Positions 28,689 through 33,354 of a stretch of 64,000 nucleotides of DNA are shown here, piece after piece; within the stretch, counting starts at the first letter, position 1; each line of letters opens with the position of its first letter. Below the pieces are notes generated by a model, which saw only the letters and a program-made list of their open reading frames with translations, ran no database searches and was not told where the DNA came from. The translations under genes and the position numbers were made by a program. Source of the DNA: Escherichia coli (lineage in GTDB: Bacteria > Pseudomonadota > Gammaproteobacteria > Enterobacterales > Enterobacteriaceae); the NCBI RefSeq assembly GCF_022846255.1, contig NZ_AP025682.1; one strand, written 5' to 3'.

Positions 28689-28939
28689 TTTTTATTTCTC
28701 TTTCAGGTGAATAGATCGTTTTTACTATTTTACCCCGCACGAATCATCGTTAAAATCAGATTATAGTGTAGGAATAATTCGTTTTTTACGAACCATTGAA
28801 GGATTTGTGCCATCAGCGATGAGATGAGTTTTTGACGGCTGTAAGCGCTGACGTGTGACCCTAAGCCCTGATAATCATAGCTTAAGGTGAGGATTTCTGA
28901 GGGATTAATTAGGAAAAGTAATAATAAAATCGCACTGTG

Positions 28940-30184
28940 CTATAGCTGTTTATTCCAGAGATGCTTGAAAATATCTAATGTTGAGACAACATTGGCAGGC
29001 GACATTCGGTTTAATGAGGGTAGAAAGGGATGAGCCTCCAGGAAGTTGATAAAACGAGTCGCGCTTGCTAACGTCGAATACCGCATTTCATTTGCTTTCT
29101 TGTTTCCTGTAAGGTTACAAACAGCCATTGAATAATCACGGGCGGAAAATGCACGCCAAACATTATTTCTCACGCCATCACTCAAAAACAACCGCGGCGG
29201 CGTATCATAATGAGTCGTTTTCTCGCCGCGTTCTTTCACAAATGAAATATGGCACCGGCCTTGATGAATATGCTGTAAATTAGCCATTAGACAACCGCCT
29301 AATATAAAGCACTCGTGATCAAGGTAGTGTTGAATATTTATAGAATATGCTTCAGTCAGTGCTCTAACCAGTTCAAAATGGCGATATGCCGGAAGAACCG
29401 GTTTCACCAGCATCCCCGGATCGTTTTGATGTAATATCGCCCGACCATAATCAATATCAAATAAGGTATCACGCCGCATAGTAAGTAACTCCTTGCGTTG
29501 TACGTGATGCGCCAGTGTACCTGGAGACAAACGCTCTTCATAACTTGATGCATATTGATAATGCGACTCTACCGCTGATGAAGAATAATTTGTTGAAATA
29601 GCGACGACTCTACCGCTTTGTTCTTCTGCGGTAACAAGACTATAAAGATAGTTGTTACTACCGTTAAACTTTACGCGAAAAGCGCGGGTAGCGAGAGAAA
29701 TATCAGAAGCAGAAGAGTACTGGCAACTTTCTTTATAGTTTACTTCCCGGGCTAGTTTCATCAACTCACGGTTAAGCCCTGTGCTATTAAGAAGTAATAA
29801 TTTACGGATATCTGCAAGTGAAGCGCCTTGCTCAATCATCAATGCTAAATGTGTTCTTCGCGGCGTTGTATTTACATGATCCAGAGTGATAAAAGTTCTG
29901 GAACAATGATGACAATACATTCTCCTCTGCCCCTGAGCTGAATAGCCATACTTTTTCAGAGATGTGCTTCCGCAAGCTGAACATTGTGGAACCAACCCTC
30001 TCCATGAATGATTAACACGATTACGATAAATATTAAGAGATCGTTCAGATATCACAGGAAACAAGTAACCGCATTCACGGCATAAAATATTTTTACCCTG
30101 TGCGACATAATCCTGGCTATTCAGCACCCCCAGGTTTTTACATCCTGGTGTTTTGCAACAATCAACATTTACGTTGGTAAACAT
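28940..30184 (-). CDS. Cys-rich protein with tandem zinc-ribbon motifs and putative HTH; function unknown (possible regulator)
   Basis: ORF 28940..30190; ATG at 30184 with GGGAG SD; two CxxC...CxxC pairs in first 100 aa. Confidence 0.6.
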   Translation of the reverse strand: MFTNVNVDCCKTPGCKNLGVLNSQDYVAQGKNILCRECGYLFPVISERSLNIYRNRVNHSWRGLVPQCSACGSTSLKKYGYSAQGQRRMYCHHCSRTFITLDHVNTTPRRTHLALMIEQGASLADIRKLLLLNSTGLNRELMKLAREVNYKESCQYSSASDISLATRAFRVKFNGSNNYLYSLVTAEEQSGRVVAISTNYSSSAVESHYQYASSYEERLSPGTLAHHVQRKELLTMRRDTLFDIDYGRAILHQNDPGMLVKPVLPAYRHFELVRALTEAYSINIQHYLDHECFILGGCLMANLQHIHQGRCHISFVKERGEKTTHYDTPPRLFLSDGVRNNVWRAFSARDYSMAVCNLTGNKKANEMRYSTLASATRFINFLEAHPFLPSLNRMSPANVVSTLDIFKHLWNKQL

Positions 30185-30312
30185 ATCCACTCCCTGCGAA
30201 TAGCCGTATCTTGATATTGTTCAACGCGAAAAGAACCTGATTCAATGCGTAGCACTGAATCAGGCGGGCATAGCCCTAAATGGCATACATTACATTTATT
30301 ATGATTATCAGG

Positions 30313-31806
30313 TTAGCCCCAGGTCACCGCTTCTGGTTTATCACCTCTGGCTTTCATTAGAGAATCATTATCAATATCAGTTTTATATTTTAAAAACTTA
30401 CCATACATCTGTTTTTCAATATCTGGTTTTTTACCGATCAGATTAAGTGTTTCAAAACGATCAGATTTCAGATTGTAGAGATATTTCGGTTTATTATTGC
30501 GATCGATAATCATCTTCCAGTCACCATCACGGATCGCCCATTCATCGGTTGGATCATCCTGGAATGGCATGTCAATTCCGAAGATTAATGGCTTTTCACG
30601 TTTTAGCGCCTTGTTCTCAAGGACAGGAACCAACGATTCGCCATCAAAAGTCCGGTCCGTCGGTAATTTGAAGTTCATCATTTTCGCCAGCGTAGGCATC
30701 CAGTCCAGACCATAAACAGGCGTATCTGAAACCATTCCCTTTGGAAGATGTTTACCGTATTTAATAATTGCCGGAACACGAATTCCGCCTTCCCAAAGGT
30801 TATCCTTGCGACCGCGTAATCCATCCGTTTCCCCTGCCAAATTCAGCTCATACACTTTGCGCGCTTCACGCGTTACCGGACCGTTATCACTGGTAAAAAT
30901 AACGATTGTGTTATCTTCTTCACCCATCGCTTTGATTTTATCCAGCACTTTTCCAACCTGTGCATCCAGATAGCTGATATTGGCATAATATTCCCCCACA
31001 CCACGCCAGGGTTTATCCGCCCAGTCGCCATAAAATAAATCAGGATGCTGCTTCTGATAGTCGCTCATATATTGTGAGTACATGTCGAGGTATTTTTTGG
31101 GCGAAGCCAGGGGACTGTGCACTTCGGTAAAAGCGACATAAAGGAAGAAAGGCTTACTATCCTTTTTGTTATCCAACCAGTTAACGACTTCCGAACTGAC
31201 ATACTCACCACTCATTTTATCGGCACGAGGTGTGGGTTGCCCGTTACGCAACCAACCCGTCGGATACACCATGCCAAAACGGGGACGCTCCTTCGCATTA
31301 TCCAGAGTAGCGTCGGTAACAAAACCCGCCGTATTAACCAGTGAGTAATCAAAGCCCATATCTTTTGCCTGAGGCTGATCGGTACGATCGCCGCCTGCAT
31401 TCAGATGCAGCTTACCCATCATTGCCGTGTCGTACCCTTGCGCTTTGAGTAGATTAGCAATCGTGAGTTCGTTACGCCCTAATGCCACATCTTTTCCCGT
31501 TGGGATCCATGAACGTATGCCGGTACGAAATGGCATCCGCCCCGTTAATAACCCCGCTCGCGAAGGAGAACTTAAGGGAGCTGGTGCATAGTAGTCAGTA
31601 AATTTGACGCCCTCCTGGGCAAGCCTGTCAATATTGGGGGTTTTAACGATCTGATGTCCATATGTTGCTAAATCACCATAGCCTAAATCATCCGCCATAA
31701 TGATGACTAAATTAGGTTGTTTAGTCTCGGCAGCTACGACTGGATTAAAAGCATTCCCTGTGCAAACTGCAAGGCCGATCAAACTGGCCATTAATGTTTT
31801 CTGCAT
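30313..31806 (-). CDS. periplasmic Ser-type sulfatase (arylsulfatase family)
   Basis: ORF 30313..31842; ATG at 31806 with AGGGA SD; signal peptide; sulfatase signature PLSSPSRAGLLTGR with Ser at the formylglycine position. Confidence 0.85.
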   Translation of the reverse strand: MQKTLMASLIGLAVCTGNAFNPVVAAETKQPNLVIIMADDLGYGDLATYGHQIVKTPNIDRLAQEGVKFTDYYAPAPLSSPSRAGLLTGRMPFRTGIRSWIPTGKDVALGRNELTIANLLKAQGYDTAMMGKLHLNAGGDRTDQPQAKDMGFDYSLVNTAGFVTDATLDNAKERPRFGMVYPTGWLRNGQPTPRADKMSGEYVSSEVVNWLDNKKDSKPFFLYVAFTEVHSPLASPKKYLDMYSQYMSDYQKQHPDLFYGDWADKPWRGVGEYYANISYLDAQVGKVLDKIKAMGEEDNTIVIFTSDNGPVTREARKVYELNLAGETDGLRGRKDNLWEGGIRVPAIIKYGKHLPKGMVSDTPVYGLDWMPTLAKMMNFKLPTDRTFDGESLVPVLENKALKREKPLIFGIDMPFQDDPTDEWAIRDGDWKMIIDRNNKPKYLYNLKSDRFETLNLIGKKPDIEKQMYGKFLKYKTDIDNDSLMKARGDKPEAVTWG

Positions 31807-31825
31807 AATTATTCCCTGATGAAAA

Positions 31826-32587
31826 TTAGAAATCATAACCAAGCATATAAATCATTTGATCGCCAAAACCATCGTAGCCCAACTTATTATCGAAATAACG
31901 CCACGTCACACTGGCTTTCCAGCGAGGATAAAACTTCCAGGCCACTGTTAAACCGCCATTTAGCCCATTCCTACCAAATTGTTGTTCCGCATAGGCATCA
32001 TTTCTGTCCAGTTCTATTTCATTCCAGTTAGATAAAACAAATTTTTCGTCAAATAACGTAAAAGGTAATACTGCTGTCCAGCCAACAACATAACCATTCC
32101 AACCATTCGTTTGACCATATTTAGCTGAGACGTAGTCACCAGATTGATTATGTAATCCAATATACGGTTTAAAAAAGCCCCACTCGCCGTTCCAGCCGAG
32201 GTAACCGAATCCATAAAACATATCAAGATCGTCACCCCATGAGTTATCCCATTGGCCATAAATTTTGCCAAAGAATGTCATATCAGAGTCAAAGAGTCTG
32301 ACATGCGTCATTGCTGAAACCGTATGATTTCTCCCTGCTACAGCATGATTGAGTACATTACTTTCATAAAATGAGTAAAATTCTGCTTCTTTAAAATTTA
32401 CCCCAAAATCCGCAGTCACTTTCCATACTTCACCACGGTGAGTGTTTACAAATCCACTATTCCAGTCTGCATAACCCGCATTTATTGAACCAAAGGTTCC
32501 TTTATATTCTAATGAAGAATATGCAGGAAAATGATAGATAGCTGTTATCAGGGTACACGCAATAAGAAGTCGTCTTTTGGCAGACAT
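31826..32587 (-). CDS. small outer-membrane beta-barrel channel (KdgM/NanC- or Tsx-like)
   Basis: 253-aa ORF with signal peptide, aromatic-rich alternating pattern, C-terminal ...GYDF. Confidence 0.6.
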   Translation of the reverse strand: MSAKRRLLIACTLITAIYHFPAYSSLEYKGTFGSINAGYADWNSGFVNTHRGEVWKVTADFGVNFKEAEFYSFYESNVLNHAVAGRNHTVSAMTHVRLFDSDMTFFGKIYGQWDNSWGDDLDMFYGFGYLGWNGEWGFFKPYIGLHNQSGDYVSAKYGQTNGWNGYVVGWTAVLPFTLFDEKFVLSNWNEIELDRNDAYAEQQFGRNGLNGGLTVAWKFYPRWKASVTWRYFDNKLGYDGFGDQMIYMLGYDF

Positions 32588-33098
32588 ATAATATGTTCTC
32601 CATTCATTGTTTTTATGATTCCATAGGAATTAATACACCAGACAATTCATTTTTATTAAGAATGACCAGGCCAGTATATTTAAAGATGACTATCGAAGCG
32701 TGATGAAGATCGCAGATTACTTTTGCGAACGGGCGGAGAGATATCGTGTTTCAGAAAATGTGTCTGTTTTAAATATCACCCTTTGATTTATAGGCATTTT
32801 TCATGATGAACTTAGCATTGACTGCTGAACGTATTTCTTTGTCTCTCTATAGTATTACACTAACCTTTAATAATTAATTTCCTTTAGCTATTCACTTTTG
32901 ATAGAGGAAAACACCTTTTTTTGTGAATCCATGGATATTTTTAAGTTAAATAAATTGATGTATTGAAATATTATTCCGTAAAAATGCGAGGCGTCTTCAG
33001 AAAAAGAATTGATAAAACAGAAGTGAATTAAAAGCGCTGTATAATAGCGGCGGGTGCTTGAGGCTATCTGTCTCAGGCATTAGCTGAACGGCAGATAG

Positions 33099-33153
33099 AG
33101 AAAAGCCCCGAGTGATATTTTACCATCAACCCGAGGCCCCCTATATGCTGAAC
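33099..33153 (-). ncRNA. sokC: sokC antisense RNA of the hokC/mokC type I toxin-antitoxin locus
   Basis: placed by recalled K-12 spacing relative to the mokC start; not verified by structure. Confidence 0.4.
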
Positions 33154-33354
33154 ACATGTAGAGTGCCTCTTACTGACCGTAAGGTCAAGGAGAAGAGAGC
33201 AATGAAGCAGCATAAGGCGATGATTGTCGCCCTGATCGTCATCTGTATCACCGCCGTAGTGGCGGCGCTGGTAACGAGAAAAGACCTCTGTGAGGTTCAC
33301 ATCCGAACTGGCCAGACGGAGGTTGCTGTTTTCACGGCTTACGAATCCGAGTAA
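33145..33354 (+). CDS. mokC: MokC, translational regulator overlapping hokC
   Basis: 69-aa frame MLNTCRVPL... fully containing hokC. Confidence 0.6.
   Translation: MLNTCRVPLTDRKVKEKRAMKQHKAMIVALIVICITAVVAALVTRKDLCEVHIRTGQTEVAVFTAYESE
33202..33354 (+). CDS. hokC: type I toxin HokC (Gef), small membrane toxin
   Basis: 50-aa ORF MKQHKAMIVALIVICITAVVAALVTRKDLCEVHIRTGQTEVAVFTAYESE. Confidence 0.8.
   Translation: MKQHKAMIVALIVICITAVVAALVTRKDLCEVHIRTGQTEVAVFTAYESE

Follow-up and report, generated by a model that had tools for sequence, protein, structure and literature searches.

Why should an outer-membrane channel gene and a sulfatase gene of Escherichia coli be accompanied by a third gene whose product resembles, in part, a protein of the insertion sequence IS1? 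This question is raised by a 64,000-nucleotide stretch of contig NZ_AP025682.1 (RefSeq assembly GCF_022846255.1), hereafter called the window, in which the gene of interest, here named X, lies downstream of the sulfatase gene. A sequence-only reading of this DNA had described the X product as a protein with two CxxC...CxxC units and a stretch like a helix-turn-helix (HTH), and had suggested that it might be a transposase-derived regulator of the module or a new accessory factor. We find that X is a domesticated, immobile descendant of an IS1-like DDE transposase (one with an InsA-type N-terminus) that no longer carries the Asp-Asp-Glu (DDE) residues, and that it is a constant, selected component of an enterobacterial channel-sulfatase operon. 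With moderate confidence, we infer that its function is dedicated transcriptional control, exerted at a CRP-dependent promoter via a 16-bp box.

Architecture, fold and immobility of X

The gene and the parts of its product are located as follows.

28940..30184 (stop codon included), minus strand: gene X, encoding a zinc-ribbon / zinc-ribbon / HTH / RNase H-like protein of 414 amino acids, as seen in the open reading frame, the RefSeq coding sequence and the family of homologues
30071..30157, minus strand: zinc ribbon 1, amino acids 10-38 (C10-x4-C15 ... C35-x2-C38), seen in the family alignment and as beta-hairpins in the AlphaFold2 model
29903..29983, minus strand: zinc ribbon 2, amino acids 68-94 (C68-x2-C71 ... 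C91-x2-C94), homologous to the IS1 InsA zinc finger
28943..29704, minus strand: RNase H-like (DDE-transposase-type) core, beta insertion and C-terminal helices, amino acids 161-414, from AlphaFold2, structure search and alignment

The minus-strand open reading frame occupies 28940..30190 and yields 416 residues when read from its GTG codon, or 414 residues from the ATG at 30184, which has a Shine-Dalgarno sequence (AGGGAG) 5 nt upstream. RefSeq makes the identical 414-residue call (WP_001361352). The names given to the product by RefSeq vary by strain among ‘cytoplasmic protein’, ‘IS1 family transposase’ and ‘hypothetical protein’, and the second of these labels is wrong for the reasons that follow.

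Residue conservation was judged from an alignment of 53 homologues with identities down to 17%. Both cysteine units noticed previously are real and conserved, given that C10, C15, C35 and C38 are kept in at least 90% of the homologues, whereas C68, C91 and C94 are invariant and C71 is again present in at least 90%. The spacing originally described holds for the second unit only, as the first has the form C-x4-C, 19 residues, C-x2-C. When the family profile is compared with K-12 InsA by hhalign, residues 65-141 of X align with residues 5-84 of InsA (probability 96.7%, E 4e-10), a region that spans the zinc finger and HTH of InsA and corresponds to ribbon 2 of X plus its next three helices. The match recurs against an InsAB' alignment, where it is limited to X residues 65-145, and the NCBIfam model for the IS1/IS1595 zinc domain (NF050000) scores 31.9 bits on X with a cut-off of 28. 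These profile matches bear out the earlier impression that the second ribbon is InsA-like and is followed by an HTH-like stretch. InsA is the DNA-binding repressor of IS1. Matches between X and C2H2 zinc-finger sequences in the PDB were also obtained and were rejected as noise caused by the Cys/His pattern.

Residues 160-414 have no match in Pfam, NCBIfam, PHROGs, PADLOC or PDB sequence searches, and the previous remark that the last 280 residues resemble nothing is thereby upheld at the level of sequence. It does not hold at the level of fold. Although AlphaFold2 run with 23 close homologues produced a model too poor for use (pLDDT 57.7), the addition of 30 distant homologues from an exhaustive HMMER search gave a model with pLDDT 92 and pTM 0.92. 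In this model, residues 161-301 form an RNase H-like core (beta1-beta2-beta3-alpha1-beta4-alpha2-beta5-alpha), which is followed by a beta-rich insertion at 311-357 and then by the C-terminal helices. The C-terminal part of X thus has the fold of RNase H-like proteins and DDE transposases and integrases. Foldseek comparison with the PDB returned low-TM Argonaute/PIWI matches, which merely restate the RNase H fold. The profile and structure-prediction checks proposed by the sequence-only reading therefore found InsA homology in the N-terminal part and an RNase H-like transposase core in the C-terminal part, such that the idea of a transposase-derived protein has strong support and applies to X in full.

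A working DDE enzyme requires two invariant aspartates. No Asp column is conserved among the 53 homologues, and the sole acidic residue present in at least 90% of them is E291, just after beta5. With triad positions assigned by secondary structure and alignment rather than by 3-D coordinates, the beta1 position is occupied by T/S166, and the segment after beta4 reads K-P-V-L and includes no acidic residue. The residues conserved family-wide are T/S166, Y211, R238, Y246, P262, H269, F270, H286, E291, W343 and N411. Four others (C292, C298, C311 and H312) are conserved solely within the clade of X proteins linked to sulfatase genes.

The distribution of X is that of a fixed chromosomal gene. Among 5426 complete E. 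coli genomes, 1280 carry X, and each has exactly one copy, always on the chromosome and never on a plasmid. By contrast, clusters of genuine IS1 InsB contain thousands of member sequences. Carriers include the B2-type strains NC101, LF82 and ATCC 25922. Two alleles exist, one sharing 95-99% identity with the window (230 E. coli genomes) and the other sharing about 82% (1050 genomes, among them those of NC101 and ATCC 25922). Between these alleles, dN/dS for X is 0.10 at a dS of 0.91, and X is under purifying selection. In nine loci, the window among them, searches around X or the module revealed no terminal inverted repeats (TIRs) above shuffle level.

Could X nevertheless still work as a transposase or recombinase, moving itself or the module as an unusual IS1-like element? 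The name ‘IS1 family transposase’ that RefSeq sometimes applies would fit such a role, as would a fold that is that of DDE transposases and the presence of the module at several chromosomal sites (the dnaJ-nhaA interval and three or more others) with X always at one end. Set against these points are the lack of a conserved DDE triad, of TIRs and of anything matching InsB, a score for the IS1 equivalog model of 28 bits (cut-off 100) that comes from the N-terminus only, the one chromosomal copy in each of the 1280 genomes, the cross-genus synteny and the dN/dS of 0.10. We consider active transposition highly improbable, and the idea is largely refuted already. The sequence-only reading had said that its proposal would be undone by clear homology of the whole protein to a characterised transposase. 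X does not prove to be simply a transposase, being a single-copy, syntenic gene under purifying selection whose product has no conserved Asp.

The channel-sulfatase operon and its maturase

The module of which X is part is laid out in the window as follows.

28929..32933, strand not applicable: porin-sulfatase-X island of 4.0 kb, delimited by comparison with E. coli K-12
31826..32587, minus strand: Tsx/OmpK-family outer-membrane channel gene, the first gene of the module, from the open reading frame, a domain search and RefSeq
30313..31806, minus strand: periplasmic S1 sulfatase gene, encoding 497 amino acids from the RefSeq start
31570-31572, minus strand: AGT (Ser) codon at the formylglycine position of the sulfatase
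30235..30265, minus strand: terminator-like hairpin with 14 pairs and a T-run, located between the sulfatase gene and X

The gene order on the minus strand is dnaK, dnaJ, the Tsx/OmpK-type channel gene, the sulfatase gene, X, nhaA and nhaR, with X separated from the upstream sulfatase gene by a gap of 128 bp. E. coli K-12 has no X, and at the position of the island it carries 78 unrelated bp in which comparison with the island reveals no recognisable remnant. The type I toxin locus mokC/hokC (33112-33354, plus strand) directly adjoins the island, and does so likewise in other E. coli strains. A variable module with a ‘putative cerebroside sulfatase’ adjoining nhaAR has been described by Lescat et al. 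2014 (PMC4182557), and X is not discussed there. Literature searches with STM0035-37, the RefSeq accessions of X and possible locus tags of uropathogenic E. coli returned nothing about the X protein.

The island also shows mosaic divergence. Between the window and a second locus (L001; these numbers are our own and are used to tell loci apart), dS is 0.044 for X, 0.30 for the sulfatase and 0.38 for the porin. The sulfatase and porin genes are about 94% identical to those of nearly all carrier genomes, and X instead splits into its two alleles. This pattern suggests that there are recombination breakpoints inside the island.

To view X across genera, loci were collected from exact-protein look-ups and from a single scan of species-representative genomes, which yielded 19 loci, each from a different genome, and their gene content was annotated by tblastn with reference proteins. 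In all 27 of the sulfatase-linked loci that reach upstream of X, the preceding gene is the orthologous sulfatase gene or, placed after the sulfatase gene, one for the radical-SAM/SPASM anaerobic sulfatase-maturating enzyme (anSME). The sulfatase-linked clade covers about ten genera (Escherichia, Salmonella, Citrobacter, Klebsiella, Kluyvera, Kosakonia, Phytobacter, Buttiauxella, Franconibacter and Scandinavium) as well as metagenomic contigs, and identity among its X proteins falls as low as 32%. Ancestrally, the genes were arranged as Tsx-type channel, sulfatase, anSME, X. Most genera have the anSME gene between the sulfatase gene and X; it is present in 18 loci, and X starts 8-33 bp past its stop codon. 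In many genera the module lies between dnaJ and nhaA, although other sites are used in Scandinavium, Buttiauxella, Franconibacter and the loci L004 and L011. Within E. coli, where X is found in 1280 genomes and the sulfatase and porin genes in 1277, the genes are present or absent together. Such linkage across taxa (27 loci, about ten genera) is what one expects to see for the regulator of an operon.

The maturase gene is far less constant. It is missing, with X and the sulfatase gene intact, from all six Escherichia loci as well as from Phytobacter massiliensis (L029), Klebsiella spallanzanii (L030), Kluyvera intermedia (L031) and Klebsiella oxytoca (L032), and has apparently been lost repeatedly and independently. 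The non-Escherichia loci that are without anSME keep the Cys-type sulfatase motif. What E. coli has lost matches the Klebsiella anSME open reading frame (L007 6755-7984) exactly, and the upstream hairpin is left in place. By sequence alignment, not folding, this hairpin stretch (30235..30265) matches the Klebsiella sulfatase-anSME intergenic region, and judging from the alignment, the Klebsiella counterpart might attenuate transcription between the sulfatase and anSME genes. Because X and anSME coexist in 18 loci, X is no substitute for the maturase, and because X persists after anSME loss, it is not dependent on the maturase either.

Escherichia differs from the other genera in the sulfatase itself. 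The motif in the window is SSPSR, and the previous assignment of this enzyme to the Ser type is correct as far as the window goes. What that assignment missed is that this state is confined to one genus: CSPSR (encoded with TGT or TGC) is found in 21 of 21 non-Escherichia orthologues, and AGT (Ser) in six of six from Escherichia (the window, one strain for each E. coli X allele, E. albertii, E. whittamii and an Escherichia sp.). The replacement of Cys by Ser is a single T-to-A change amid diverged synonymous sites, and on the strength of these alignments we take the Ser-type state to be derived and Escherichia-specific. The sulfatase remains under strong constraint (dN/dS about 0.03), although its branch is longer in Escherichia than in Klebsiella or Salmonella. 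In this genus, the maturase has gone and Cys has given way to Ser, while X has stayed.

Sulfatases of the Ser type are understood to require anSME. The Escherichia enzyme may be matured in trans by AslB/YdeM, or may not be matured at all. A third maturation activity has been inferred in K-12. Since K-12 lacks X, this protein is not that third activity, and the tentative link made by the sequence-only reading falls away. That reading was right, on the other hand, to say that X is not a classical maturase. Sequence inspection and Pfam searches of X detect no CxxxCxxC motif and no Radical_SAM, PF04055 or PF13186 match. The domain of the formylglycine-generating enzyme (FGE; PF03781) is likewise not matched in Pfam or NCBIfam, and the X fold is unrelated to it.

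It might still be argued that X acts after translation, as an accessory factor of sulfatase biogenesis. Such a factor could hold the unfolded pre-sulfatase for anSME, provide metal centres or mend them, or link export with maturation, and in Escherichia it might enable the Ser-type enzyme to mature without a cognate anSME. Placement 8-33 bp after the anSME stop codon in 18 loci is the spacing of an operon partner, and the sulfatase is more tightly accompanied by X than by anSME. The conservation of the clade-specific residues C292, C298, C311 and H312, together with H286, also speaks for this reading, and the Escherichia combination of anSME loss, Cys-to-Ser switch and retained X can be read in the same way. 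Moreover, sulfatase maturation in E. coli is incompletely understood (PMC8379841). However, the part of X that is conserved family-wide consists of a DNA-binding head and the fold of a nucleic-acid enzyme, with no radical-SAM, FGE or other redox-enzyme signature, and paralogues occur beside nupC or 5'-nucleotidase genes where no sulfatase gene is nearby. The persistence of X without anSME means that anSME is not an obligate partner, and K-12, from which the third activity was inferred, is without X. We regard a role in sulfatase biogenesis as unlikely, and the suggestion of a new accessory or maturation factor is weakened both by the anSME gene beside X in 18 loci and by the K-12 genome.

The module promoter and the role proposed for X

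If X is a regulator, its target might be sought at the promoter of its own module. Conserved blocks were found there by aligning the orthologous regions upstream of the channel gene, whereas looking for common promoter motifs with simple k-mers gave results at shuffle level only.

32673..32678, minus strand: candidate -10 hexamer TATACT of the module promoter, placed by conservation and spacing
32699..32716, minus strand: CRP-like site TCTGCGATCTTCATCACG, of the TGTGA-N8-TCACA class, from the upstream alignment
32748..32763, minus strand: module-specific 16-bp box ACACATTTTCTGAAAC, candidate operator of X, with the family consensus CAACAY-N4-TGNCAC

The CRP-like site is centred about -41.5 from the presumed transcription start, a class-II position, with the spacing taken by inspection relative to the conserved TATACT. 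Its TGTGA-N8-TCACA form is characteristic of the Escherichia/Klebsiella/Salmonella/Kosakonia clade, and the canonical TGTGA-N6-TCACA form occurs in the clade of Scandinavium, Buttiauxella, Franconibacter, L011 and L039. Farther upstream, the 16-bp box contains a pair of RACAY-like half-sites at a distance of 10 bp from each other. From the start of the box to the CRP-like site there are 46-49 bp or 38 bp, spacings that differ by one turn of the helix and so keep it on the same helical face.

A weight matrix was built from 12 box sites and used to scan 480 kb, comprising the fetched loci and the window, with a cut-off of 15.5 bits. There are 22 matches at or above this cut-off, all of which lie within module promoters and are oriented along transcription, and none is found outside module promoters anywhere in the 480 kb, the 64-kb window included. 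Matches other than the training sites are those of L039 (16-17 bits), the opposite strand of the Salmonella locus (L005 minus, 21-22 bits) and L036. In Salmonella, where the porin and sulfatase genes are divergent, there is one box per direction, each scoring 21-22 bits. The divergent region of K. spallanzanii has two weaker candidates (15.4 and 11.2 bits). The two clades of X also differ in box and spacing, one having ACAT/TGACAC at 46-47 bp and the other ACAC/TGYSAC at 38 or 49 bp.

X is the natural candidate to bind the box because no other gene of the module encodes a DNA-binding protein and no other gene invariably accompanies the module. X has kept the DNA-binding head of the transposase (the InsA-type ribbon and HTH, along with an extra zinc ribbon) and its RNase H-like body without the Asp-Asp-Glu triad. 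Under our proposal, the head would bind CAACAY-N4-TGNCAC upstream of the class-II CRP-like site, and X, jointly with CRP, would act on the operon formed by the porin and sulfatase genes, anSME where present, and X itself. Its dead RNase H domain may serve for oligomerisation, ligand sensing or both. Binding of the box, control of transcription and the direction of that control are all features that we infer. Regulation of the module, one of the two roles that had been suggested from the sequence, is the best-supported function, given the invariant linkage to the sulfatase, the retention of X after maturase loss and the module-specific box; it nevertheless stays at the level of a proposal.

Distant relatives offer a further perspective. 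Paralogues with 22-29% identity occur as single genes beside nupC (L015) or ushA-like 5'-nucleotidase genes (L014, L018), and another (L013) is arranged tail-to-tail with a radical-SAM/SPASM gene. A canonical CRP site is present in each intergenic region of the paralogues L014, L015-L017 and L018. By analogy, single genes that sit beside CRP-type catabolic promoters (nupC, ushA-like) would be typical of local regulators. These CRP sites and neighbours, taken with the Tsx-type channel of the module, hint at a nucleoside-scavenging theme in the wider X family.

Several observations weigh against the assignment of the box to X. Twelve of the 22 matches are the training sites of the matrix, and there are others that are orthologues of those sites. 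The box is weak in L011 and L030 (12.8-15.4 bits), is absent in L004 (about 4 bits) and was not found beside the distant X paralogues. On the opposite strand the box reads TGTCA-N5-TGTTG, which has a loose likeness to ArcA or Pho boxes. Furthermore, X comes last in the operon, 8-33 bp after anSME, a placement that is also typical of an enzyme partner, and the family-wide conserved residues of what was once the active-site region (T/S166, H269, H286 and E291), with the clade-specific C292, C298, C311 and H312, could bind a metal or substrate rather than be purely structural.

Direct repeats with a periodicity of 10-11 bp are typical of response regulators of the OmpR/PhoB/ArcA type. It is therefore appropriate to ask whether X binds DNA while the box belongs to a host regulator, for example an ArcA/PhoB-type response regulator. 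X might then repress from some other site, act in the manner of nucleoid or insulator proteins, or work as a sensor by titrating a different factor. The box is indeed a direct repeat with the 10-bp periodicity and architecture associated with winged-helix response regulators, the CRP-like site shows that host global factors act at the module promoter, and the paralogues have no box beside them. However, a global motif should recur, and there are zero matches outside module promoters in 480 kb. The differences in box and spacing between the X clades are also those expected when a private regulator co-evolves with its site, although shared ancestry could explain them as well. We view a host regulator as a fairly unlikely owner of the box, and continue to favour X.

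A more ambitious extension of this proposal can also be formulated. X would be the first bacterial DDE transposase to be exapted as the private regulator of a catabolic operon; its dead pocket (T/S166, H269, H286, E291 and C292/C298/C311/H312) would bind a metal or sulfated ligand; and X would keep the Escherichia Ser-type sulfatase functional after anSME loss, either by controlling a maturase that acts in trans (AslB/YdeM) or by joining maturation directly. We consider this combination quite unlikely.

Elsewhere in the window, a fimbrial usher-like gene (23507-25185, plus strand) is represented by two overlapping open reading frames of 453 and 194 amino acids and is probably a frameshifted pseudogene. 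It is followed by a fimbrial-like open reading frame of 315 amino acids at 25572-26519.

Comparison with known systems

The closest comparison is with IS1. Ribbon 2 and the HTH of X are homologous to InsA, and the order of zinc finger, HTH and RNase H-like core mirrors that of InsAB', although X has an extra N-terminal zinc ribbon. The C-terminal domain of X is about 250 amino acids long and includes a beta insertion, whereas InsB has about 140 amino acids. No InsB-type domain is detected in X: PF03400 is not matched, and NF033558 reaches 28.4 bits against a cut-off of 100, from the N-terminus only. Comparison by hhalign gives a probability of 0.3% against InsB and no C-terminal match against the InsAB' alignment, which is shallow; homologue searches with InsB recovered near-identical IS1 copies only, so no deep IS1 profile could be made. 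X is also without the DDE residues, TIRs and frameshift of IS1 and is single-copy and syntenic. Measured by what defines the IS1 family, it therefore shares the InsA-type finger and HTH, but has no InsB domain, no DDE triad, and none of the TIRs, multiple copies or plasmid locations of these elements. Compared with the IS256/Mutator-type transposase ISCth4 (PDB 6xg8) and other DDE transposases and integrases, X has 6-12% identity, does not conserve the catalytic residues and gives no evidence of mobility.

Some resemblance to anSME/AtsB also deserves mention. The maturase is the immediate neighbour of X in the ancestral operon, and both proteins are cytoplasmic, Cys-rich and encoded with the sulfatase. 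However, X is not homologous to anSME/AtsB, has neither CxxxCxxC nor SPASM, and coexists with the maturase in 18 loci.

We believe that these findings matter for several reasons. X is present in about one in four complete E. coli genomes and also in Salmonella, Klebsiella and Citrobacter, and its annotation can now be corrected to that of a transposase derivative without the DDE residues that is fixed and linked to a single sulfatase operon. A concrete candidate operator of 16 bp and the promoter architecture around it are now defined. Moreover, the analysis exposes a genus-wide event in Escherichia, in which maturase loss is accompanied by a Cys-to-Ser change at the formylglycine position, that bears on how E. 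coli matures its sulfatases. The sulfatases of gut Enterobacteriaceae are in turn relevant to the use of sulfated host glycans.

To our knowledge, no bacterial DDE transposase has been described as domesticated into an operon-embedded regulator, and a search of the literature on domesticated bacterial transposases found no comparable DDE example. X is thus a rare and clean bacterial case of transposase domestication. In eukaryotes, domesticated DDE transposases serve as DNA-binding regulators, as with FHY3/FAR1 (Mutator), ZBED/DAYSLEEPER (hAT) and CENP-B (pogo). Like these proteins, X keeps a DNA-binding head and an RNase H-like scaffold, has lost catalysis and mobility, and resides at one locus under purifying selection. 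Unlike them, it is bacterial, is embedded in an operon, and is tied to a single catabolic module.

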